Virus genome (UHGV): UHGV-0218401
Strand: one strand, 5' to 3'
DNA length: 33,188 bases
Source: a virus
The notes beneath the pieces were generated by a model that saw nothing but the letters and a program-made list of their open reading frames with translations, did no database searches and was not told the origin of the DNA. Below are positions 82 to 28,783 of the stretch, piece by piece (within the stretch, counting starts at the first letter, position 1; each line of letters opens with the position of its first letter). The position numbers and the translations under genes are program-made.

Positions 82-193
82 AACTGAAGTTGCCCTGAAA
101 ATGAAATTTTTTTGCACAACCGCAGAACTTTTCCGCAGGGCATCAGTCTTAATTAGTGCCACTGCTTTTCTTTGATGTCCCCATTTTGTGGAG

Positions 194-236
194 CCCATCA
201 ACCCCGCCATTTCGGTTCAAGGTTGATGGGTTTTTT
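194..236 (+). terminator. Rho-independent terminator (10-bp stem cccatcaacc/ggttgatggg followed by TTTTTT)
   Basis: Perfect 10-bp inverted repeat at 194-203 and 221-230 with a 17-nt loop, immediately followed by a T6 run at 231-236, downstream of the partial plus-strand gene. Confidence 0.5.
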
Positions 237-297
237 GTTGCCTGATTTTTATGCCGTTTAAAATCATGATGTTAGAAGCATTGCTTTTTAATGATGG

Positions 298-344
298 CGA
301 CAAAATGGCGGCAGAGCCTACGCATTCTTCAGAAGTCTTCCGCC
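298..344 (-). terminator. Possible terminator hairpin downstream of the RT gene
   Basis: On the minus strand, ggcgg...ccgcc stem with internal pairing followed by ATTTTG; large loop, so weak. Confidence 0.25.
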
Positions 345-385
345 TTTGCAGTCATAAAGTTACTATTGGATTAAATTTATTCTTT

Positions 386-1156
386 TCATCTAAATAGCTT
401 TGCCTGCTCTAGATTCACGCTCCTCACATAGTTTGCAATCCCTAGCTTATGTTGCTCATCATTACTTGCATAAAAATCAATCAAAAATTCACTCAACCTT
501 TCCGCTGTAACTGACATGTTTCCATGACGTAAAGAAATATTAAAAACCACAATTTTGTTAGACGGCGGCTGAGACTTCTTCAAATTCAATTTATACCCAG
601 ATTTTTCCATTGCTTGAAGGATTTCTTGGTAAGTTGTTTGTAGCGTCTGGAAATCATTTGAAGATATGATCACATCATCCATATATATGCTAAGTTTCAT
701 AGTCCCTTTACGGCTTAGCTTTCGTAACAGACTCCCCAGATAACTCTTATCTAAACAAAGAGTTGCAAGTATAGGAGACTGTACAAAACCAAAAGGTAGG
801 ACGTATTTGTGTAATCCAGATGATGGATTCTTAACTGTAGAATATCGAGAGATCTCTCGTGCTTTTTCGTATGAAAAATATTCATTTAAACAACGAGTTA
901 CTCTGCTTCGGCTTGTAGACAGGAAAAATTGTTTGATGTCCACAACAGCAAAATAAGTATTTTTCAGGTGTAAACGTGTGGCTTTTAAATGCCCACCAGT
1001 CCTGAGATGAAAAAAATAAAGTGGAGGATTCCAGTGCTTCCTTACAGCGTTTAATATTTTACTACCGTTTTTTACTGCCTCTGGAGATGGCGCAAAAACC
1101 CATACTCCTGGTTTAATCTCAAATTTGTGCTTCCATCTTTGGAGTTCTAACGTCAT
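386..1156 (-). CDS. Compact reverse transcriptase (RT domain only, 256 aa), candidate defence-associated RT
   Basis: ATG start. RT motifs read directly from the translation: AVVDIKQFF (motif 2), LPFGFVQSPILATL (motif 4), SIYMDDVIIS (motif 5, YxDD catalytic box), GYKLNLKKS (motif 6). No thumb or extra C-terminal domain. Strongly AT-rich compared with the phage backbone. Confidence 0.75.
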   Translation of the reverse strand: MTLELQRWKHKFEIKPGVWVFAPSPEAVKNGSKILNAVRKHWNPPLYFFHLRTGGHLKATRLHLKNTYFAVVDIKQFFLSTSRSRVTRCLNEYFSYEKAREISRYSTVKNPSSGLHKYVLPFGFVQSPILATLCLDKSYLGSLLRKLSRKGTMKLSIYMDDVIISSNDFQTLQTTYQEILQAMEKSGYKLNLKKSQPPSNKIVVFNISLRHGNMSVTAERLSEFLIDFYASNDEQHKLGIANYVRSVNLEQAKLFR

Positions 1157-1298
1157 ATTTTAACTGCAAATAGTTGAAGGCCATGTTAAGAACGCCGATG
1201 ACCGCACCGACTAACATGACAAACGCAGTTGCGCATTTGAGCATAGCGGTGATCAGTTCAACACGCGCCTTAACTAAGCCAAGTTCGTTTGTATCCAT
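1119..1298 (-). CDS. Small single-pass membrane protein (59 aa from the second ATG), overlapping the RT start
   Basis: The ORF track gives 1119..1313; the second ATG at 1298 is preceded by GGAGGA. One hydrophobic helix (ATAFVMLVGAVIGVLNMAF). 3' end overlaps the RT start by 38 nt, suggesting co-transcription. Confidence 0.4.
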   Translation of the reverse strand: MDTNELGLVKARVELITAMLKCATAFVMLVGAVIGVLNMAFNYLQLKYDVRTPKMEAQI

Positions 1299-1559
1299 AA
1301 CTTGTTCCTCCATAGATACCTGACGTCTCTTAGCGCAAGCGCATGGCCCTAACTAAATAAAAAATAACAACCAGTAAGCCCAGAAAGCTTAACAAGTCGG
1401 CGCCCGATTACATGGCAATCAGGTAATCGGTCCGCAGTCGCAAAGCGACAAACTACATATCTACGGAGTGGGGATAAATCCCCGCTAACGTCAGGCATTA
1501 TTAATTTAACCTCAACTTATGGAAAAGTATAGTTTTAAATCATGTAGTTATGTAGCGGT

Positions 1560-1778
1560 TTAAATCGGCAATCCCACTTGTTTAAATTTATGAGGATGCG
1601 GCTGAACCGGATTTGACTCTTTGGGCGTTGCAATCGAACGAACAAAAGTTTCATGGGTAACAAAAGTATGGCTGCAGTTAATGTTCTGGCACTGGTTGTA
1701 ACGCTCTTTGGTCAATGAAGATACCTGAAAACTGCTGCGAGTATGGGCGGCACTTCCACACAGTGGGCAAATCATCAT
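1560..1778 (-). CDS. ogr: Ogr-type late gene activator (zinc-finger, 72 aa)
   Basis: Translation MMICPLCGSAAH...KERYNQCQNINCSHTF carries the Cys4 arrangement and KERY(H/N)QCQN(V/I)NC motif of P2 Ogr / 186 B; start moved to the ATG at 1778, which has an upstream GGGGAGAA RBS; 72 aa like P2 Ogr. Confidence 0.85.
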   Translation of the reverse strand: MMICPLCGSAAHTRSSFQVSSLTKERYNQCQNINCSHTFVTHETFVRSIATPKESNPVQPHPHKFKQVGLPI

Positions 1779-1868: not shown

Positions 1869-2969
1869 TCATTCCATTTCGAAATCATCAATCTTCACTT
1901 CAAGCTCCAGACTGGTCGTAAAACCGTTATCCTGGCTGACGGTATGTGTCAGGGTGGTAATGGTCCATTCCGCATCATCTATCGGCTGTTTAAAGCCACT
2001 GACTTTCACTGGCATTTCCGTGTAGAGATCTGCCCGCCCTTCCGCCAGTTGTAGCGAGAATGCCGCAACACCGCGTTGCAGACGTTCCCACTGCATTTTC
2101 GCCGCTCGTTCGGCGTTGCTCCGGTTGGCATAAGTGCGATTAAGTACCAGCACGTTTTCATCCGTACCCACCAGGTAATCGCCCTGCTTCGCTTCTGGCT
2201 CTTTCTTCTGCTTCTTAGTTCTGCGCTTACGCTTCACCGTGGTGCTTTCTTTCTTCGCGGGTTCGCGGGTATGCAACCAGCTGGCAATTACGCCCGTGTA
2301 GGCTCCGCGATCTGCCAGGGTAAAGCGGTGACTGTCGCCGTCCTTGCGTGTGATAGTGATCACCGGCAGTGGTTTACCAGTGGCGCTTTTGCCCTGTCCC
2401 TGCCGGATGAATAACAGATTGCCATTTTTCACCGACGCGATGGCACCGTACTGGCGCGCCAGCCGCATCAGAAAACTGCCGTCACTCTCATTAGTCTGGT
2501 CTATATGCTCCACGGGCTTATCCGACAGGTCTTTACCCAGTGCCATCTTCAGCTTGTGACGCGCGGCTATTTCCTTCACCACTTCCCCGACAGTGGTCTT
2601 GTGCCACGATTTTTCACGGCGGGTATTCAGCGTTTCCCTAAAATCAGCACTTCGCGCCCGGATAGTCAGGCGATCCGGTGCGCCAGTGTGTTCAATCTCG
2701 TCCACCGTGAATGCCCCTTTCGGGAAAAGCGGCTGCCCCTTCCAGCCCAGCGCCAGCGTGATGACCGCACCACGGCGCGGCAGCACGATTTTTCCGTCGG
2801 CGTCGTCCAGTTCCAGATCAAGCTGGTCTGCTTCAAAGCCCCGATTGTCCGTCAGCGTCAGACTCATCAGGCGGTTATCCAGCACAGTGGTGATATCCTT
2901 TCCCTCAATACTGATGCTGAATGCGGGAGTTTTGTTGCCTTTGTTAAGCAGTTCAGAGCTGAAATTCAC
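1869..2969 (-). CDS. D: Tail protein D (P2 gpD-like)
   Basis: 366-aa ORF at the P2 gpD position (last gene of the FI-FII-E-T-U-D operon, before ogr); GTG start overlaps the U stop (GTGA). Confidence 0.85.
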   Translation of the reverse strand: MNFSSELLNKGNKTPAFSISIEGKDITTVLDNRLMSLTLTDNRGFEADQLDLELDDADGKIVLPRRGAVITLALGWKGQPLFPKGAFTVDEIEHTGAPDRLTIRARSADFRETLNTRREKSWHKTTVGEVVKEIAARHKLKMALGKDLSDKPVEHIDQTNESDGSFLMRLARQYGAIASVKNGNLLFIRQGQGKSATGKPLPVITITRKDGDSHRFTLADRGAYTGVIASWLHTREPAKKESTTVKRKRRTKKQKKEPEAKQGDYLVGTDENVLVLNRTYANRSNAERAAKMQWERLQRGVAAFSLQLAEGRADLYTEMPVKVSGFKQPIDDAEWTITTLTHTVSQDNGFTTSLELEVKIDDFEME

Positions 2970-3451
2970 GACAGCAGCCCTCCCACCGTTTTACTGATAT
3001 CGCTTAAGGCAGACGTTGCCGTATCCTGCAAATTATTCAGCTGCGCACTGAGATCACCGAACATATCGGACAGGGATTCATCCACCCGTTTGAGCGACAG
3101 CGTGAACTCAATCCGGCGCGGCATACCATCGCGGAAAAACTCCGTTTTAGTCTGATTCAGCCCCTCAATCACATAAATGCCGTAAATCGTGCCGCTGCCT
3201 TCAATCAGGGGCCATGCTTTTCCCTGTTCTGCCATCTGCTCCAGAGCCAGCAACGACAGCCTGCCGCCCGTTATCTCCGGCATAAGAACACCAGAAAGCG
3301 TCAGCATGTCGTTGTCCGGTCCCAGAAACTGCATGGACGGACGTCGGTTGACCCGGCTGTTTGCCGCATGTCGCCAGCTGCGTTGATACTGCAGTTCCTG
3401 ATACGGCACAGTGCGCAGCATAAACACGTACAATCCCAGCACCATCATCAT
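2966..3451 (-). CDS. U: Tail protein U (P2 gpU-like)
   Basis: 161 aa; ATG overlaps the T stop (ATGA); position between T and D as in P2. Confidence 0.85.
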   Translation of the reverse strand: MMMVLGLYVFMLRTVPYQELQYQRSWRHAANSRVNRRPSMQFLGPDNDMLTLSGVLMPEITGGRLSLLALEQMAEQGKAWPLIEGSGTIYGIYVIEGLNQTKTEFFRDGMPRRIEFTLSLKRVDESLSDMFGDLSAQLNNLQDTATSALSDISKTVGGLLS

Positions 3452-6400
3452 GCGTCGTATCCCCCCTGATCGCTGTAGTTACTCCTGGCTTTTGCCTTCA
3501 GCCTGCGTTCACGTTCATCAAGCTGGCGGGCCACCTCCCGCGCAATATCCTGCGCACTTTGTCCTGGCTGCGTCTGAATGATGATCTGCGTCGGTGCCTC
3601 AATCCGTTGAACGGGCGGCACAGTGGCTGCACGACTCACCATCGCTTCGCCGCCTTTCGAGGGAAGTGCCAAAGGATGCAACGGTGGAAGCTCTGCAGGC
3701 GCGGCAGCAACGCCCATCATTCCGGCAACAACGGCAGCCAGTGAAGCTGTATTTCTCCGGCTGGTCACATTTGCCGGGCCGTTAACAATTTCCGGCCCGT
3801 TTTCACCGACGATGCCAAACTGCCCGCGCGGGATATAGCCGCCGCTGTCATACATCCCCGCAAAGCCATATCCCCATGACGGAAAACCACCCGATGGCAT
3901 CATCACTTTACCGTCTGCATTCACCGTCGCAGGTTGCTGACGCGTCACGCTTTCCGGCAGTTTCGCCTTTGCGGCCTCTTTACTGACAATGCCGAGTTTT
4001 TCCAGCAACCAGGATACGCCGGATTTCAGGGAGTCCAGCGGATGCATGACCATATTCAGCCCTTCCGCCAGCGCCTCCCCGAATCGTCGCCCCATTGCCG
4101 CTGCGCTCTGCAGTTCGGCAGAAGTCGACTTAACGGGCGTCAGCAAATCAGTAAACCAGCCCCACAGCGCCTGCACTTTGTCGCCAATCCACTGGAACAC
4201 AGGCTTAAGCGGTTCGAATGCGGCACTGATGGGTCCTGCCGCCGCTTTGAATCCTTCCACCACGCCACCGAGAAATGCGGTGATGGGTTGCCAGTATTTC
4301 CAGACAACCAGCGCCACGCCCGCCAGTGCAGTAACCACAAGACCTATCGGACTGAGCAGAGCACCTAACAGACCAGATACGGCATACAGGGCAACGCGCA
4401 GCATCGCCAGTGGACCAGATGCCAGTACTCGCAGCACCGTGCCTGCGGCGGCCAGTCCACCGCGCAGTACCGCCAGAGGATTCATAAACATCACAGCAGC
4501 AGCACGTAAACCGGATAATCCAGACCGGAACAGTGCAACCGGCGCACCTGCTACAGTTTTCAGGACATTCCCCGTCAGTGATGCCGTGCGACGCAAAGAC
4601 GACAACGGAGCAGTAAGTAAACCCGCTGCGTTGCCCGATGAAGCAAGCCCGCGTCGCAGCAGTGCCAGTGGAGCGCCAGCTAACCAGGACAACGCGCTGC
4701 TGGTTCGTGTTACTGCTGCGGTAACGGAAGGTAACGTTTTGATACCCAGCACAGAGAATCCCAGACGGATGACTGCCAGCGGCCCCAGCACTGCAGCCAG
4801 CGCCACCGCTAAGGTGCCGAGGCCTACGGTAACCGCAGCCACAACAGCCGCTACTTTCATCAGTGTGCCTGTCAGTTCCGGGTTAGCTTCCACCCAGCGG
4901 CGCAACGCCCCCGTGATGCTTTTCACCGTGTACAGAATATCCATCAGCGGCTGGCGCAGCGTTTCGCCCAGGCTGCTGAAGGTGTTCTGCGCTCCGGTTT
5001 TGACCAGCAACCACTGAGCAGAAAGTGAGTCTTTGTTGATGTCGGATTCTTTCTGCATGGAACCGAGCGCATCATTGCCCGCTGTCAGTTTTAGCTGGCG
5101 CTGCAGTTCCGGAAGGTTGTTTGCCAGTTTCGCCGCGTCATCACCAAACTCTTTACCAAACAACATGGTCATGGCAGACAGACGCTTGTCCTGCGGCAGT
5201 GCGTTCACCTTCTCCAGCACACGCTGGATAGTTCCCATCGCATCCTTCGTCATCTGCTTTTCAATCACTTCAGGATTGAGTTTCAGCAGATTCATCCCTT
5301 CAAAGAAACTCTTGCTTTGCATGGTGGCAATGGACAATTCACGCACCATCGCGTTTGCTGCACTGGCTGCAACCTCCGGTGCAGCGCCCAGTGTCAGGAA
5401 GGTGGAACCCAGCGCCGCCGCTTTACGATAATCCAGACGGTCAGCCACACCGCCCAGACGCTGCATCACATCAATGATGTCCGCCCCTTTCGACATGGCG
5501 TTATCATCCAGAAAGTTCAGCGCATCACCGAGCTGTTCAATATTGCGGGTTGGTATTTTGTAGAGCTGGGCGATTTTCCCCAGACTTTCTGACAGTTCAT
5601 CCGCTGGCAGCTCAAAGGCTGTTGCCGCTTTTGCTGCCGTACTGGCGAAGGCCAGCAGGTCACGTTTCTGGTCCTCCCAGCTGTCGTCAGGGTTTGCCAC
5701 ATTCATGCGCGCACCACCTTCAACCAGTGCGGCGAAGTCCACAGCACCGTTTTCCATTGGCAGCTGTTCACTGGCAGCTTTGATGGCATCCTGCATTTCG
5801 TAAAAACGCGCAGTGCGGTTGCCATTATCGTCACGCAGACCATTGACCTGCTTTGCCACACCTTTCATGGCATCTTCCATGCTGGTATAGCTTTTTACCG
5901 CCGCCATCACTGGCGCGCCCATTGCCAGCCCTGCAGCCGTGGTGGTGGCTCCGGCTCCTGCGATGCGATCGCGCACTTCAAGCCGTCTTGAGTATTGTTC
6001 TCTGGCAACGTTCATCCGTGCCTGTTGTTCACCCAGACGTTTAAGTGCTTTTTGCTGGCCCTCCAGTGCCTGACGAGTTTCTTCGGCATTTTTCTTAAGT
6101 TCTCGCTGGGCACTACTGAGTTGTCTGGTATCAATCCCTGATTCTTTAAGTGCCTGACGTTGTCTCTGGACCGCCCCCAACAAGCCGTTATAGGTCTGCT
6201 GAAGTTCCTGTACTCGTGTTTTGGCCTGACTGAATAACTTTGCTTGCGCGGCGGTTGGCCTGTTAGTGGCAGCAAATTGTGTGGCGAGTTTTGCCGCCTC
6301 TTCGCGGGCTGTGTTCAGGTTGTTGGCTGTTATGGCTAGTTGCGAGCGCGTCTTGCGAAATTCATCAATTCTGCCAGCCTGCTTATTCAGTTCTTTGAGG

Positions 6401-14514: not shown

Positions 14515-15321
14515 ATGAGTGTTATGAATCCAATAAGTTCTAATATATTTAATGCTGAATTTTTAAACACCCCGGCAGCGGCACTTGCCGCATGGATTTC
14601 CATTATTGGAGCTGTTATAACTTTGGTGACGATAGTTATAAGAGCACTATTCAAATATAGAAAATCTCATGATGTAATTTTGAAAAAATCAGGAATACCT
14701 GCGTTTATATTAAATTTTTTTCTTATACGAATATCATTAAAAAGGCTGCCTACTATCACATGGGCTGAAAAATCAATCACGGTTCTCTTTTCACTTCTTT
14801 TTTTGTGTGCAATTTATATTTTTGGTCCAGTTTTCATCCAAGCCATTAGAACCCCACCAAATAGCACATTGCTTTATTGGATAAAATCCGGTGAATCATT
14901 TTATATGTCAAAAAAACTGGCGACTGCAGCTACAATATTAACCACTCCTGATTGGGAAATATCAAAGGATGATTGCGAAGAGTCATCCTCTGCCAGTACA
15001 GAGAAGTACAAATCATTAACTATCGAACATAAAGAAATTCTTTGTAAACTACTAACCACTGATGAAGGGAATGCTTACATTGATGAAGAAGTCAAGAATT
15101 TCGTTAAAGACAAATTCTTTATCTATTCCTTTGCCCCAACAACCATATTTATTCTATTATGGATTTCTTTGGGTTTTATACTGACCATTCACTATTCTAA
15201 AAAAGTTAGGAAATATATTCTGACTGAACAAAAAAATGCAATTCATTGGGCATATGGTGAATTCAAGACAGAAGGAATCTATTCAATATATCAAGAGTTA
15301 GAACGTAAGACTCACCATTAA
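14515..15321 (+). CDS. AT-rich moron: polytopic membrane protein of unknown function (268 aa)
   Basis: ATG with AGGTGGA RBS; several hydrophobic helices (e.g. AALAAWISIIGAVITLVTIVIRALF, ITVLFSLLFLCAIYIFGPVF, TTIFILLWISLGFILTIHY); strongly AT-rich; divergent from V and convergent with S; occupies the S-V position where P2 carries orf30. Confidence 0.7.
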   Translation: MSVMNPISSNIFNAEFLNTPAAALAAWISIIGAVITLVTIVIRALFKYRKSHDVILKKSGIPAFILNFFLIRISLKRLPTITWAEKSITVLFSLLFLCAIYIFGPVFIQAIRTPPNSTLLYWIKSGESFYMSKKLATAATILTTPDWEISKDDCEESSSASTEKYKSLTIEHKEILCKLLTTDEGNAYIDEEVKNFVKDKFFIYSFAPTTIFILLWISLGFILTIHYSKKVRKYILTEQKNAIHWAYGEFKTEGIYSIYQELERKTHH

Positions 15322-24044: not shown

Positions 24045-24716
24045 TTAAAAACCAAGCTCATCTCTGATTCTTGGGAATTTTTTCATTACTCGAATATCAG
24101 TTAATAAATGCCAACGCCAAAAAACAGAAAATGGATATGATACATTACACATTGGCTTTAGCTTATTCTTGGCCTCTTGGATTTCTTGTTCTGTGCTTCG
24201 ATCACTGACAAGTTTCATTCTCCAACCAGTAAAGTAAAACAATTCATCTTGTAACTTCTCTGAGAGATTTGCTCTTGTAATGCCCCTCAACCCCGTACTC
24301 GAAGAGTTAAAACACTTATCTAATAATTTGACTGTATTTAAAACCTTTCTACTTGGTCTTTTTCTTCTTGGGTATACTTGAACACCACTCGTTATAGCGT
24401 TCCCTGCGAGATGAACAATCTCACTGAAAACATCAACATCACTCTTTGTGCAATCAAGTAAGTTTTCAAAAGAATCACTTTTAATACTATTGCATCGACT
24501 GCAAGCTAAAAATAGATTGTTCCAATCATATTTGAGCTCATCAAGATCACGATGTGGAATAAAATGTTCTATCTCTGGATCCATAAGATTACCTTGCTCA
24601 CAGAGATAACATTTTCCATGAAATATTTCGTCTAAAGCATTTACAACTGTTTTATGGTTATATACTTTTCTCGACAAGCATTGAGGTGCAGGAATGTTTC
24701 TAGTAACATTAAACAT
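24045..24716 (-). CDS. ptuB: HNH endonuclease, Septu PtuB-like
   Basis: Motifs CYLCE...EHFIPH...NLFLACSRCNSIK (Cys pairs and His/Asn of an HNH fold); 223 aa; overlaps the upstream ATPase gene; AT-rich. My manual indexing is 1 nt off the ORF track here. Confidence 0.7.
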   Translation of the reverse strand: MFNVTRNIPAPQCLSRKVYNHKTVVNALDEIFHGKCYLCEQGNLMDPEIEHFIPHRDLDELKYDWNNLFLACSRCNSIKSDSFENLLDCTKSDVDVFSEIVHLAGNAITSGVQVYPRRKRPSRKVLNTVKLLDKCFNSSSTGLRGITRANLSEKLQDELFYFTGWRMKLVSDRSTEQEIQEAKNKLKPMCNVSYPFSVFWRWHLLTDIRVMKKFPRIRDELGF

Positions 24717-25947
24717 CGTCTTCCCTTTCGCTATAATCTAAATATTTACTCTTAGCGATCATAAAAGCTGCTTTTGAACTTTTATCAAGAAAATCAATAC
24801 TCTTCTGTAACGTTTTCATTATAGAATGAAATCTATCGTCGAAGAGATTATTTTCTACTAAAGTCATTAATTCTTTAACTAATGCATTTAGCTTATCCGA
24901 AGATACATCCTCACCCAACAATCCCTTTATAATTGCTGTGTAAGAATACAATGATAAATCACCCATCTGATCCAATGTTGAGAGATTAAATATAATCGCA
25001 TCAGATACTGATTGGATTACGAAAGGTGAATGCGTAGAAACAATAAATTGTATTTGCGGAAAAGATGATGAAAAAAAACTAAATACTTTCTTTTGCAATG
25101 TTACATGAAGATGAGCATCAATTTCATCAATAAGTACTATCCCTGTCATATCATGTTTTCTGATTTTATCAAGCTCTGCTTTTATCAATAAATCAGTATA
25201 AATAGAAAGAATTGATGAAAAACCAGATGACAACTTATCAAGTCCAAATGGTTCCTTATTATTTTGTAAAAGATAGATTTTCAACTTGTCGAGATCAAAA
25301 TCCATTCTAATACTTTCATCTTCAAAAAGTTCTTTTAAGTCATCATTAATACTCTCAATAATATCAAAGGCTCTTTTATAGTCATCATCCTTGCCCACTC
25401 CCTTACTGACTAAAGCATAATTCCACAATGTAACTATGTATCTTTCAAAATACATACCAGCATCAATCTTAGAATTATTTCTCTGTGCGTTCCCATACTC
25501 AGTTAACAACAAATCGAGGCTGCTAATCTTACCATCATTTTTTATTTTCGCTTCTCGAATAGCAGGAAATAATCTTATAATTGATTTTTTCTTTTTTGCA
25601 GCAACCCTGAAATCAACCACATCATTAAAAGTAATATCAAAGCTCTCAAATTCTTTTAATTTTTCTTTCAGTCTCTCAATTTCTTCGTTTAAATAGCTAT
25701 AATTACCATCCCCTCTATTTGAATACTTTAAGTTTTCTTGACTGGAATTCAATTCCTTTTGTAGCTGCTCCTTAGTATAAGGATCATGTGAATTAATCGA
25801 TTTTTCTATAAACTCATAAATATTCTCGATCAACCTAGTTTTACCAGAGCCATTATCTCCTGATATTATTAGATTCTTACCATCAAGATTTAATGTGTAA
25901 GGCTCATCGTTCCTTTTAAAGAAGATAGTTTCGATGAAATGTCGCAT
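24709..25947 (-). CDS. ptuA: P-loop ATPase (AAA_15/21-like), Septu PtuA-like
   Basis: Walker A GDNGSGKT, Walker B VLIDEIDAHLH, and STHSP after Walker B; start taken at the ATG at 25947 preceded by GGGAGGA (the ORF track starts 5 codons earlier); 412 aa. Confidence 0.7.
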   Translation of the reverse strand: MRHFIETIFFKRNDEPYTLNLDGKNLIISGDNGSGKTRLIENIYEFIEKSINSHDPYTKEQLQKELNSSQENLKYSNRGDGNYSYLNEEIERLKEKLKEFESFDITFNDVVDFRVAAKKKKSIIRLFPAIREAKIKNDGKISSLDLLLTEYGNAQRNNSKIDAGMYFERYIVTLWNYALVSKGVGKDDDYKRAFDIIESINDDLKELFEDESIRMDFDLDKLKIYLLQNNKEPFGLDKLSSGFSSILSIYTDLLIKAELDKIRKHDMTGIVLIDEIDAHLHVTLQKKVFSFFSSSFPQIQFIVSTHSPFVIQSVSDAIIFNLSTLDQMGDLSLYSYTAIIKGLLGEDVSSDKLNALVKELMTLVENNLFDDRFHSIMKTLQKSIDFLDKSSKAAFMIAKSKYLDYSEREDDV

Positions 25948-26037
25948 TATTCCTCCCGTCATACTTAACAGCTTTTAGATAATATGACATTACATGTTAG
26001 ATTTCATCCGTTTTGTGAACATATCCACTGCCGCGCG

Positions 26038-26436: not shown

Positions 26437-27141
26437 TCATCTAACAGATACTTTTGCATAAATCAAAGGCCTATCCGAAGAGCCATTTTTACGTACGACC
26501 ACTCCACTGATATCATGGTTTTTACCAAGATCTCGTAATGAGGCGCACAATGCCTTGTTGACATATCCTAGATGATTGTCGTTTTTCGTTACTAATATGG
26601 CCAGCGGATCAACAGTATTGGTATCTTCATTGCGCAATATGACTTCATCACCAATTGATATCTCGTCAAGAGCTAGACGCCCTTCCTTAATCATGTGTCT
26701 CGTTCCGGCGACCTCCATGACATAATCAAAAGGTGGCCGAATAGAAGACAAGTCTGGGACAAAATAAAAACCATCACTAGCCACTTTTCCGCCAGTACAA
26801 GCGAGCAAAACGAAGTCATTCTCTCTAAAATCAGCAGGAAGACGAAACGTCAGCAAGTAATCGGCAAAATCTTCTCTTTTCCTAGAGGGTAACCTTCTTG
26901 AAAAGGTTTGCATAACGTCTTTGCGATGAGTCGTAACTTTTATGTCAAAAGCAGGAAAACCGTGAAAGCCTTTATCCACAGCTTTAGCAAAATCTTTGCT
27001 ATCCGTAAGATAATTAAACTCGTAGCCTTCAGACTCATCTTGAAGAAGTTCACCAACGACATAGCGAGAGCCGCCGTCGGTCGGTTGCCATGTCAGTAAG
27101 AGCCTACTTGGCATGGGAATTTTTTCTATTAAGATAGTCAT
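26437..27141 (-). CDS. Hypothetical protein (234 aa), third gene of the exonuclease-kinase cassette
   Basis: ATG overlaps the kinase stop (ATGA), implying translational coupling; AT-rich; no motif I can recognise by eye. Confidence 0.6.
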   Translation of the reverse strand: MTILIEKIPMPSRLLLTWQPTDGGSRYVVGELLQDESEGYEFNYLTDSKDFAKAVDKGFHGFPAFDIKVTTHRKDVMQTFSRRLPSRKREDFADYLLTFRLPADFRENDFVLLACTGGKVASDGFYFVPDLSSIRPPFDYVMEVAGTRHMIKEGRLALDEISIGDEVILRNEDTNTVDPLAILVTKNDNHLGYVNKALCASLRDLGKNHDISGVVVRKNGSSDRPLIYAKVSVR

Positions 27142-28049
27142 GAAGTAACACCTTTAATCAGTTCAATACGCATGTTTGTTACACGAACAATCCATGCAGC
27201 ACGTTCTCTAGTCAGCGGAACAGGGCAGTTTATTTCCGTCAACTCCGCAAAAGTTGAGTCCCAAAAGTCATGGTTCAAACGAGCCAGTCTTTCAGCTACC
27301 CGCTGTTTTAATTCTTCTTTTTTATCACAAAGTTCTTTGATTAACTCTAAATGACCTAATCTCTGATACTCATCTTTGCCCAGAGTCTTACGCAAATGAT
27401 GCTTTCCCCGGCTAACATGCTCCCTGAGTCTATGATCGGTCCAATCAGCAACATGTTCCGGAAAACGTTCGTAGCATAAGCTCGTACCATTATCGAAAAA
27501 TGGTGCAAGCTGACACTCGCTGGTTAAAGGTGAGAAGATAAACCCCCAGTTTTCTTGATGTCTATCTGTATTACCTATTACTGCGTCAAAGAGAGCCATA
27601 TTCTCCAACCACTCAACATAGTCAACTTTAAGAGCTTTCGCGATAATCCTCAGCCCTTCAATGGAATGCTTAGCTCCTTTCTCACGATCAAAATTTGGAT
27701 CTCTTCGAACAAAGTAATCACCAGCGGGAGCAAATTTCTCATAATCTTTATGATGAAACCACTCAATGAGGGCCCCGCAAAACGTATGCCCCAAATCATT
27801 AGTCTTTAACGAAGGAACTGCTTTGGGGACATTAAAACCAAGCTGCAATCCAATCCTGTAGGCAACGATCTCACACCAAAATTGATCTGGGTATTTTTTA
27901 ATACTTCTCTTAAAAAGATACGGCCACGATGCTTTGATACCATGGGGGGCAACATCAGGGGAAATAACCAATGCCTTAGAGCGAGCACCAACAGGATACT
28001 GTGCGAAAACATCTAGCTCAGTCCAATAGGTTACATCTAAGCAATCCAT
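27138..28049 (-). CDS. HipA-like Ser/Thr protein kinase (HipA_C-type core, 303 aa)
   Basis: Catalytic-loop signature VIGNTDRHQENWGF (compare HipA ...GATDGHAKNFS); AGGA RBS; ATG start; 15-nt gap after the exonuclease gene. Confidence 0.65.
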   Translation of the reverse strand: MDCLDVTYWTELDVFAQYPVGARSKALVISPDVAPHGIKASWPYLFKRSIKKYPDQFWCEIVAYRIGLQLGFNVPKAVPSLKTNDLGHTFCGALIEWFHHKDYEKFAPAGDYFVRRDPNFDREKGAKHSIEGLRIIAKALKVDYVEWLENMALFDAVIGNTDRHQENWGFIFSPLTSECQLAPFFDNGTSLCYERFPEHVADWTDHRLREHVSRGKHHLRKTLGKDEYQRLGHLELIKELCDKKEELKQRVAERLARLNHDFWDSTFAELTEINCPVPLTRERAAWIVRVTNMRIELIKGVTS

Positions 28050-28064
28050 AGCTAAGTCCTATAT

Positions 28065-28610
28065 TTATTTTTTATTTAAATTCATATAGATGTGAGAAAC
28101 CTGTGCGATCTGAAATAAAACATCATCGAATGCTGTGTGCCTAATGCCAGTGAAATTTTTATCAGCATGAGAAAAAATTCCTTTGCTTTCACCAAGTGCT
28201 AAGATGGTTCTAACGTCAAGAGTATCTCTGAATGACCATGGGCAATCCAGACCCGCCTGTAACAGGGCATGATGCATGATCGTGCAGTCAAACTCTTTCC
28301 CGTTTCCCCACACTTTTACTCGGCCAGTACGATTATGAAGAATAAATGCCACAAATTCATTCAGAACCTCTAAAAGGTCCTTAGTGCCATCAAAATTTTC
28401 GTTTTTAGCTTCAGTACTTTGATTCATCCACCACTTTACAGTAGAGGGGGCAATGGTTCTGCCTGCTTGTTCATGATCAAGCGAAATAACTTGATAGAAA
28501 CCCGGACCAATCTCGCCAGTCTCCGGCACGAAAAAAGCCGCACCAACTGAAAGGATATAAGCTGTTTTTTCAACATCCAATGTTTCTATATCTAACATTA
28601 CATGATTCAT
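28065..28610 (-). CDS. DEDDh-type 3'-5' exonuclease (DnaQ/RNase T-like fold)
   Basis: Exo I MLDIETLD (D-x-E), Exo II VWGNGKEFD, Exo III H-x4-D in GIRHTAFDDV; ATG at 28610 chosen (ORF track begins at a TTG three codons earlier); about 181 aa. Confidence 0.7.
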   Translation of the reverse strand: MNHVMLDIETLDVEKTAYILSVGAAFFVPETGEIGPGFYQVISLDHEQAGRTIAPSTVKWWMNQSTEAKNENFDGTKDLLEVLNEFVAFILHNRTGRVKVWGNGKEFDCTIMHHALLQAGLDCPWSFRDTLDVRTILALGESKGIFSHADKNFTGIRHTAFDDVLFQIAQVSHIYMNLNKK

Positions 28611-28783
28611 AAGAAGCAATTGAAACCATTTAGTAAAAATTGAAAGCTATCACCACATTAATGCATGGCATATACATTTGTGGACGAAAACAAGTATTCT
28701 GATTATAACCCAAGTGAAAATCTCAAGTGTCGTAACTTTCACTCGGTTGTTTTCAGTTTCGAAAAACTACTGGGAAGATCCAT

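Follow-up and report, generated by a model that had tools for sequence, protein, structure and literature searches.

The virus genome UHGV-0218401, a stretch of 33,188 nt that is referred to below as the window, carries at positions 386–1508 of the minus strand an element of about 1.1 kb, composed of a structured non-coding RNA (ncRNA), a small open reading frame (ORF) encoding a helical peptide, and a compact reverse transcriptase (RT). We interpret this element as a self-contained, prophage-borne, retron-like module with a putative role in defense against phages, and put the probability of this interpretation at roughly 55%. The three parts co-occur across Proteobacteria, and both the ncRNA structure and a helix involving the Shine–Dalgarno (SD) sequence of the small ORF covary. 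Synthesis of msDNA (multicopy single-stranded DNA) and the defense role are suggested by analogy with characterized retrons. The preliminary description of the locus had placed its limits at 386–1313, a span that holds the two ORFs and leaves out the ncRNA and the promoter at 1316–1508. The components of the module are as follows.

1503–1508 (−): TAAATT, candidate −10 hexamer of the ncRNA/operon promoter, recognized by positional conservation
1316–1499 (−): msr-msd-like structured ncRNA, from minimum free energy folding, RNAalifold, and a covariance model
1487–1498 with 1316–1327 (−): ncRNA terminal stem P0, core CCUGACG/CGUCAGG
1486–1485 (−): conserved AG of the ncRNA
about 1468–1486 (−): ncRNA hairpin P1, present in nearly all members
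1458–1468 (−): anti-SD linker CUCCGUAGAUA between P1 and P2, predicted to pair with 1308–1318
1437–1449 (−): ncRNA hairpin P2
about 1365–1436 (−): variable ncRNA hairpins P3
1333–1342 (−): conserved ncRNA hairpin P4, GCGC-UU-GCGC
1308–1318 (−): 3′ strand of the predicted SD-sequestering helix, UAUCUAUGGAG, from the sequence and a cognate/non-cognate helix test
1306–1311 (−): SD sequence GGAGGA, within the 1306–1318 element
1119–1298 (−), or 1119–1313 (−): small ORF of 59 aa from the start called by the Prokaryotic Genome Annotation Pipeline (PGAP), or of 64 aa from the ATG at 1313; ORF and RefSeq/PGAP call
386–1156 (−): compact RT of 256 aa with catalytic D73 and Y158-M-D160-D161; ORF and Pfam RVT_1 match (E = 2e-18, 67 bits)

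The Structured RNA, Its Promoter, and the Shine–Dalgarno Helix

The 247-nt gap between the phage gene ogr and the small ORF has a predicted folding energy of −67.7 kcal/mol (z = −4.07 relative to shuffled sequences), with a 12-bp stem joining the ends. A non-coding RNA had been suspected in the preliminary description, and the covariation search of the upstream region that it proposed located one. Upstream regions of 80 related loci, collected from species-representative genomes, contain a clear conserved block; an alignment of 35 sequences was folded with RNAalifold and converted into a covariance model, R1. This model has exactly one match in each of 62 of the 82 sequence sources searched. 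The matches all share the strand of the RT and immediately precede the small ORF, and many of the matching loci lie outside the training set. The match in the window spans 1316–1499 on the minus strand (55.8 bits, E = 1e-10). In the alignment of the 62 sequences the pairing holds in 98.2% of cells, compared with 23–37% when the partner columns are slid, and compensatory changes are observed in 11 of 17 pairs, including 6 of the 7 pairs of the terminal stem.

From 5′ to 3′, the RNA consists of the first arm of P0, the trinucleotide [U/C/A]AG, hairpin P1, a single-stranded linker, P2, one or two variable P3 hairpins, a conserved U-rich stretch, P4, and the 3′ arm of P0. Hairpin P2 (GUCAC-NNN-GUGA) is short, and P4 (GCGC-NNN-GCGC) is small and invariant. 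The AG(G) follows the 5′ arm by 2–5 nt, as UAG in 57 of the 62 aligned members and as CAG or AAG in the remainder. Retron msr-msd RNAs are organized as inverted repeats joining the ends, one to three msr hairpins, and a variable msd hairpin (PMC7736814), and by its predicted structure the ncRNA described here matches this layout. The alphaproteobacterial loci (L062–L082) have the RT and a small ORF ending its conserved part in Asn-Tyr (NY), and almost none of them matches R1; in two of these loci, L064 and L068, a terminal pair CCCCAGC...GCUGGGG is visible by eye, and a divergent version of the ncRNA probably exists.

Relative to the first nucleotide of the ncRNA, 40 of 50 loci have a sigma-70 −10 element (TANNNT) starting at −10 or −9, and 23 of 50 have a −35 element TTGNNN at −33 or −32; the copy in the window has a poor −35. 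Scanning the window with a promoter consensus yields a weak site only, the promoter being evident solely from the conservation of its position across loci. Since these elements are situated at a fixed distance upstream, the ncRNA appears to head its own transcription unit, and a single promoter is predicted to serve the ncRNA, the peptide ORF, and the RT ORF.

The SD sequence of the small ORF is strong, starts at a median of 6 nt past the 3′ arm of the ncRNA (58 of 62 loci) and is predicted to be mostly paired. Its proposed partner is the linker between P1 and P2. In the window, CUCCGUAGAUA (1468–1458) and UAUCUAUGGAG (1318–1308) can form a helix of 11 bp, and comparable pairings at other loci include CCUCAUCA with UGAUGAGG, CCUCGUCUC with GAGAUGAGG, CCUUAAUC with GAUUAAGG, CCCUCUAUUC with GAAUAGAGG, and CCUUUGACAUA with UAUGUCAAAGG. 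A helix test over a wide search area barely exceeded the background (8.9 bp for cognate pairs, 7.5 bp for non-cognate, 7.4 bp for shuffled). It was replaced by a restricted test in which the 22 nt before P2 were matched against at most 19 nt ending at the SD sequence; here the mean helix length is 8.25 bp for cognate pairs, 5.58 bp for non-cognate pairs, and 5.41 bp for shuffled sequences (p = 6e-24). Helices of at least 8 bp are formed by 67% of cognate, 11% of non-cognate, and 6% of shuffled pairs, with 45 distinct strand sequences. As the cognate helices are longer than the controls, the extension beyond the generic SD/anti-SD core covaries. Hence, the linker is predicted to occlude the ribosome-binding site of the small ORF. 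The helix crosses P0, and would thus be either a pseudoknot or an alternative conformation.

The Helical Peptide and the Compact Reverse Transcriptase

The overlap of the small ORF with the start of the RT gene, which the preliminary description had noticed, is 38 nt long, and the small ORF is a conserved partner: homologous ORFs precede and overlap the RT in at least 56 of the 80 loci. The PGAP start, annotated at the identical E. coli locus, is the second ATG, with the SD sequence GGAGGA 7 nt upstream. The only invariant feature of the peptide is the C-terminal Asn-Tyr, present in 55 of 55 distinct peptides. It ends a helix of approximately 35–40 residues that is hydrophobic at five of seven heptad positions and has polar or charged residues at −4, −7, −11, −14, −18, −21, −25, and −28 (aligned on NY); the tail past NY, which is the part overlapping the RT start, is not conserved. 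The peptide has no match in PADLOC or PHROGs, and NCBIfam gives only a weak sub-threshold one.

It had been described as a single transmembrane segment. This holds only weakly. A run of 25 residues without charge might let the E. coli copy cross a membrane; most other peptides have Arg, Lys, or Glu in the middle of the helix, so a single transmembrane segment is not a property of the family, whose common features are an amphipathic helix with a charged, heptad-like stripe and the NY. Natural in-frame fusions of the peptide to the N-terminus of the RT occur in Klebsiella, in Serratia, and in two further lineages (P0034, P0021, P0070, and P0227 are fusions of this kind). The AlphaFold2 model of one such fusion has a single, confidently predicted helix at residues 2–40 followed by a disordered linker.

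The RT gene of the window has no SD sequence of its own. Given this and the overlap with the small ORF, translation of the RT is probably coupled to that of the peptide. A search of 5.8 billion proteins revealed more than 160 relatives of the RT, which are 250–270 aa long except for a few longer fusions and originate from α-, β-, and γ-Proteobacteria and a few other metagenome-assembled genomes. An exhaustive profile search yielded 273 cluster representatives (50% identity) at E ≤ 1e-30, those covering the full profile being about 250–260 aa long. D73 of motif A and D160 and D161 of the YMDD motif are invariant. Given the uniform length of the family, the short RT is native and not truncated.

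The preliminary description had set this enzyme outside the well-characterized families of defense RTs, and its database scores agree: no family-level match or specific model exists for it in PADLOC-DB v2, NCBIfam, or PHROGs, and the best scores, about 60 bits, are far under the cut-offs. In PADLOC, these are 62.9 bits for the type VI retron RT model RT_VI (a partial alignment), 59 bits for I-B, and 63 bits for CRISPR-RT; in NCBIfam, the St85 retron RT scores 56 bits against a cut-off of 235. It had also been set apart from retrons. Its unusually small size stands, whereas by profile, fold, and RNA layout its nearest relatives are retrons. In PADLOC and NCBIfam, models of retron RTs score best; the family profile, compared with all Protein Data Bank sequences, has its top matches exclusively among retron RTs (Kva2, Ec86, Eco8, Ec78, Ec67, Ec83); and the AlphaFold2 model, which is complete and confident (predicted local distance difference test score 90.9), retrieves with Foldseek 18 retron RT structures as its best matches (TM-score 0.70–0.77), followed by DRT9, one of the defense-associated RTs (DRTs), and group II RTs. 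Sequence profiles and modeled fold thus place the RT in a retron or retron-like clade.

The family profile aligns collinearly with residues 60–296 of the Ec86 RT. In region X, the Ec86 motif NNATPH corresponds to A59-[A/T/I/L]60-x-x-H63, where H63 is invariant, A59 is nearly so, and the asparagine is absent. The Ec86 motif KVTGL is aligned to (I/K)VFNL with invariant F205 and N206 and no glycine, i.e., the VTG hallmark of retron RTs is lacking. A thumb helix is common to both (G-W-L-S-F-I-L-S-V-D in Ec86, G-I-x-x-Y-V-x-S-V-N in the family; shared G-x-x-[YF]-[VI]-x-S-V-[ND]), and the model has a C-terminal helical bundle at residues 218–252. The earlier statement that the enzyme has no thumb is therefore not upheld; the model suggests an RT made of fingers, palm, and a short thumb, with no extra domain.

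Several other classes of RT were considered and rejected. The RT of a diversity-generating retroelement (DGR) is not indicated, as no template and variable repeats are seen, the covariance model finds one ncRNA copy in the window, no direct repeat of at least 17 nt involves 1316–1499, and the DGR RT ranks 46th by fold. For a group II intron RT, model TIGR04416 gives 27 bits against 300, and an Rfam scan of positions 1–2000 (E ≤ 1) reports only the host small RNA RybB and a chance match to CyVA-1, with no retron or other RNA family. The UG/Abi enzymes (DRT1–9, AbiA/K/P2) are disfavored by scores of 18 bits each for Drt3a and Drt5 against cut-offs of 200–550, by the lack of an extra domain, and by the absence of any DRT model among the best 25 of 42 PADLOC matches. 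The CRISPR-RT score is likewise far under family level.

An all-against-all comparison of neighboring ORFs found no protein family common to more than 4 of the 80 loci, suggesting that the system consists of the RNA, the peptide, and the RT only. Klebsiella and Dickeya prophages (L084–L092, at about 2350–4090) encode a protein of about 550–560 aa without Pfam domains between HP1_ORF34 and the module; it is not an obligate partner, because it is absent from L086, whose RT is identical. The module of the window (240–1560) was also compared with that of another E. coli prophage (L002, 4536–5820). The ogr proteins of the two are identical, and nucleotide identity falls from 98.9% in the ncRNA to 84.6% in the small ORF, 70% in the N-terminal and 61% in the C-terminal half of the RT, and 49% downstream. 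This gradient points to a recombination breakpoint within the small ORF; it also suggests that almost the same ncRNA can serve RTs that have diverged.

Proposed Mechanism and Competing Explanations

The mechanism that we propose follows the analogy with type VI retrons. The msr-msd of Retron-Vpa2 is directly followed, on a “hybrid RNA”, by the coding sequence of a small toxin that has a hydrophobic core; this toxin is translationally repressed, and becomes derepressed once phage infection induces msDNA (bioRxiv 10.1101/2025.10.22.683967); a related small-protein toxin occurs with a helix-turn-helix (HTH) antitoxin in Retron-Sen3 (10.64898/2026.04.27.721009). By analogy, the RT would, in the manner of retrons, bind its own ncRNA and make a DNA copy of a part of it, the P4–P3 region. 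As long as the system is at rest, the fold of the RNA would hold translation of the helical peptide low, and probably that of the RT as well. Upon phage infection, altered reverse transcription or remodeling of the RNA could free the ribosome-binding site, possibly through synthesis of complementary DNA or action of RNase H reaching the anti-SD linker. The freed peptide would then be a toxic effector, most plausibly acting at the membrane, so that the cell is killed or arrested and infection is aborted; as an outcome, the lysogen, and hence the prophage, would be shielded from competing phages.

Type VI retrons appear to be the closest functional analog. Both have a compact retron RT, RT_VI being the best PADLOC retron model for the RT described here; a small helical protein with a hydrophobic core directly after the msr-msd or msr-msd-like RNA, on the same transcript; an RNA structure predicted to occlude the ribosome-binding site of this protein, here from sequence covariation; and no enzymatic effector domain. 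On the other hand, the module has no HTH (Cro/C1-type) antitoxin gene and its small ORF overlaps the RT directly; its peptide, which has no similarity in PADLOC, forms one helix with NY at the C-terminal end and not a bundle of two or three helices; its inverted repeats close ahead of the small ORF and not around it; its RT is shorter (about 255 aa) with VFN instead of VTG; and the RT_VI score is just 63 bits, similar to those of the I-B and CRISPR-RT models. With the HTH gene absent and the RT score low, the module does not belong to type VI. Membership in retrons as a whole is partial: the RT clade and the RNA layout are those of retrons, the histidine of region X is present without the asparagine, and the VTG is not found. 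The small ORF, adjacent to the RT and sometimes fused to it, is a candidate for the effector that accompanies retrons as tripartite systems. We class the module as retron-like, with an RT clade, an RNA family, and a partner of its own.

Among other known systems, canonical retrons such as Ec86 (type II-A) have an RT with which that of the module is collinear, sharing its thumb helix and region X histidine, and Ec86 is the best structural match (TM-score 0.73). In both cases the ncRNA lies on the RT strand and upstream of the RT, and has an a1/a2-like terminal stem, small hairpins toward the 5′ end, and a variable hairpin toward the 3′ end; the copy in the window likewise has UUAG after the 5′ arm. 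The module differs from Ec86 in lacking about 45–59 N-terminal and about 24 C-terminal residues of the RT, in having VFN for VTG and A[A/T] for NA, in the conserved GCGC-NNN-GCGC hairpin by the 3′ arm, and in a candidate effector that is not an enzyme. Type IV retrons (Ec48, Retron-Eco6) likewise combine a retron-type RT with a small hydrophobic, possibly membrane-active protein, and reside on mobile elements, whereas the partner here is one helix of about 40 aa and not two transmembrane segments, has no PADLOC match, and accompanies a much shorter RT of another clade. RTs such as Abi-P2, and retrons, are known as accessory cargo in AT-rich morons of P2-like coliphages (Odegrip 2006; PMC9122126); the present module is located at the junction of ogr and the attachment site (att), outside the hotspots described in PMC9122126, adds an ncRNA and a small ORF, and belongs to a different RT lineage, as UG/Abi models do not score. 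DRT2 (UG2) also combines an RT with an upstream structured ncRNA and no enzymatic effector, while the module has a conserved small ORF, and its RT is nearer to retrons by fold and sequence (DRT2 ranks 43rd in the Foldseek search). A concatemeric “neo” ORF of the DRT2 kind is unlikely: a stop-free frame occurs in only 8 of 62 circularized ncRNAs and in none of the frames of the window copy.

Several observations weigh against the retron-like interpretation. In retrons, a branching guanosine is conserved at the end of the 5′ inverted repeat, and msDNA carries a 2′-5′ RNA–DNA branch; the candidate counterpart here is the G of the AG that follows the 5′ arm. Of 54 foldable members, however, 52 are predicted to have this AG paired, at the base of P1, and not unpaired, and [U/C/A]AG is not strictly invariant. 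The SD helix crosses the terminal stem, so the two may be mutually exclusive. In alphaproteobacterial loci, the RT and the small ORF mostly occur without an R1 match. Every retron hidden Markov model scores far under family level (RT_VI 63 bits, St85 56 bits against 235), and the asparagine of the NAXXH motif is replaced by alanine. As for the peptide, no convincing transmembrane segment is seen outside the enterobacterial copies, docking of the helix by AlphaFold2 is not confident (the predicted TM-score fell to 0.79), and the occasional fusion to the RT N-terminus fits a structural RT subunit equally well.

This last possibility is the strongest competitor, although we consider it clearly less probable than a retron-like module with a peptide effector. 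The peptide would be a detachable N-terminal subunit of the RT, replacing the 45–59 or so residues present in canonical retron RTs; the output would come from the DNA product or the ribonucleoprotein, as it does in DRT systems that lack an effector, and the SD helix would serve autoregulation of the RT. The Ec86 alignment beginning only at residue 60, the four in-frame fusions, the polar stripe of the amphipathic helix, which suggests an interface, the lack of a separate conserved effector gene, and the overlap with an RT gene without its own SD, suggesting coupled, stoichiometric synthesis, all favor such a subunit. However, the fusion is modeled as a free-standing 39-residue helix on a disordered linker with no docked domain, and five hydrophobic positions out of seven exceed the usual need of a soluble interface helix. 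Fusion itself does not discriminate, since retron effectors are fused to RTs in known types (PMC7736814), and an endless ORF, as a DRT2-like output, is confined to the eight ncRNAs mentioned above. A different role for the peptide, protein priming, seems distinctly improbable. Here DNA synthesis would start from the hydroxyl of the invariant Tyr in the Asn-Tyr, in the way of AbiK, Abi-P2, and DRT9-type enzymes, and the ncRNA would be a scaffold or template. Such a role would account for the NY being the sole invariant feature and ending the conserved region, for the fusion or co-translation with the RT, and for the missing VTG motif, to which a part in priming and in recognition of the msr is ascribed; by fold, DRT9 RTs rank next after retrons, and protein-primed RTs are documented (PMC12483538). 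Nevertheless, the covarying terminal stem with a conserved AG by the 5′ arm has the geometry of 2′-OH priming, and sequence and fold group the RT with retrons and not with UG/Abi enzymes.

The module might instead serve the phage or itself, by controlling lysogeny or induction or as a selfish retroelement at prophage ends, which we regard as unlikely. It is consistently found beside the att of P2-/HP1-like prophages, it shows mosaic exchange between prophages (ncRNA 98.9% and RT about 66% identical), and the sole literature found on a family member treats STY2879 as a diagnostic marker (PMC4409374). But many loci in α-, β-, and γ-Proteobacteria share no conserved neighbors, the marks of a mobile retroelement (integrase, endonuclease, target-site feature) are missing and the element is present in a single copy in the window, and AT-rich accessory genes located in hotspots or at the ends of prophages typically act against phages (PMC9122126); the same prophage also carries Septu and PDC-M03 elsewhere. 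Decay or truncation of a classical retron, or of another RT system, to leave the module as a remnant, which the preliminary description had raised, is very improbable. The short RT (256 aa) and its low scores against known families would fit, but the 273 representatives have equal length, the catalytic residues are invariant in the family, the structural model is confident and complete, and the partner ORF, ncRNA, and promoter are conserved.

If the retron-like interpretation is correct, the module represents a new minimal architecture for the retron family, and the regulation of small-toxin translation by reverse transcription of the same RNA extends beyond type VI. Somewhat short of even odds, we tentatively suggest that it is a fourteenth, and the smallest, kind of retron, with an RT of about 255 aa, a single-helix NY effector of about 40 aa, and an ncRNA of about 150–180 nt acting both as template and as translational gate, widespread in Proteobacteria and att-proximal in P2-/HP1-like prophages. 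Carriers among such prophages include those of E. coli, Klebsiella, Dickeya, and Salmonella Typhi (STY2879). In our literature searches we found no description of this RT family, prior mention in supplementary lists being possible. STY2879 has been used as a target for loop-mediated isothermal amplification diagnostics, with its function stated to be unknown (PMC4409374); the present analysis would provide a candidate function for this gene, which is conserved in S. Typhi and has hitherto been a diagnostic target only. A length of about 1.1 kb and an RT of 255 aa would be attractive for retron-based genome engineering, and with only three parts, the system would fit on one plasmid in which the terminal stem, the AG, the anti-SD linker, the NY, and the YMDD could each be probed by point and compensatory mutation.

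Prophage Boundary and Genomic Context

The following features flank the module.

161–239 (+): host small RNA RybB (Rfam, 105 bits)
226–239 (+): attachment core on the attR side, ATGGGTTTTTTGTT, the last 14 nt of the RybB terminator; this 14-mer is repeated beyond the integrase
1560–1811 (−): late activator gene ogr (Pfam Ogr_Delta, 6.7e-22, and RefSeq annotation), the final core phage gene before the module

The preliminary description correctly placed the RT next to ogr and assigned it to the host flank outside the prophage. The latter assignment is contradicted by a second copy of ATGGGTTTTTTGTT, found just downstream of the integrase in an identical prophage of E. coli S171-1 (NZ_CP058725.1), which is inserted between ybjL-rybB and rcdA. 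As ATGGGTTTTTTGTT occurs on both sides of the prophage, it represents the att core, and the DNA from about 240 onward belongs to the phage, with the RT module inside the prophage. The module is therefore accessory cargo of the prophage, and the ogr-att junction is a site at which both this prophage and related ones of the P2-like kind carry cargo. The prophage integrates into the terminator of the small RNA gene rybB and regenerates the rybB end. No tRNA or tmRNA was found in the window.

The AT-richness noticed earlier is borne out: GC content is 35–39% across the module region and about 55% in the nearby late genes of the phage. An 82%-identical module is located between ogr and att of a P2-like prophage at ssrA in other E. 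coli, and 72 of 5426 complete E. coli genomes match the module. In Klebsiella and Dickeya, the relatives are the last gene of HP1-/P2-like prophages, beside mug-rpoD or other host genes, and the records of 13 deposited Klebsiella phage genomes have a 66%-identical RT right at their end. Thus, the module is seen at the ends of prophages integrated at three sites, rybB, ssrA, and mug-rpoD, which independently supports its assignment to the prophage.

The same prophage contains a complete Septu system (24045–25962, minus strand) in an AT-rich island, with PtuA of 417 aa (405 bits) and PtuB of 223 aa with an HNH domain (274 bits), and the PADLOC candidate system PDC-M03 (26437–28049, minus strand), comprising a HipA_C-like kinase of 303 aa and a HIRAN-domain protein of 234 aa. 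Both occupy known hotspots of the prophage, and this context fits a defense role of the RT module. PDC-M03 is followed by a gene for an Rv2179c-like 3′-5′ exoribonuclease (184 aa), the whole stretch 26437–28619 (−) having a GC content of 30–41%. A DUF6216 protein is encoded at 14515–15321 (+) in an insert of 34% GC among the tail genes, on the strand opposite to its neighbors, and is probably another moron. Finally, in NZ_CP058725.1 the same prophage has a DUF4041-domain gene between the CI repressor and the integrase (L083, 2306–3982, past the end of the window), which is a possible accessory or defense gene.

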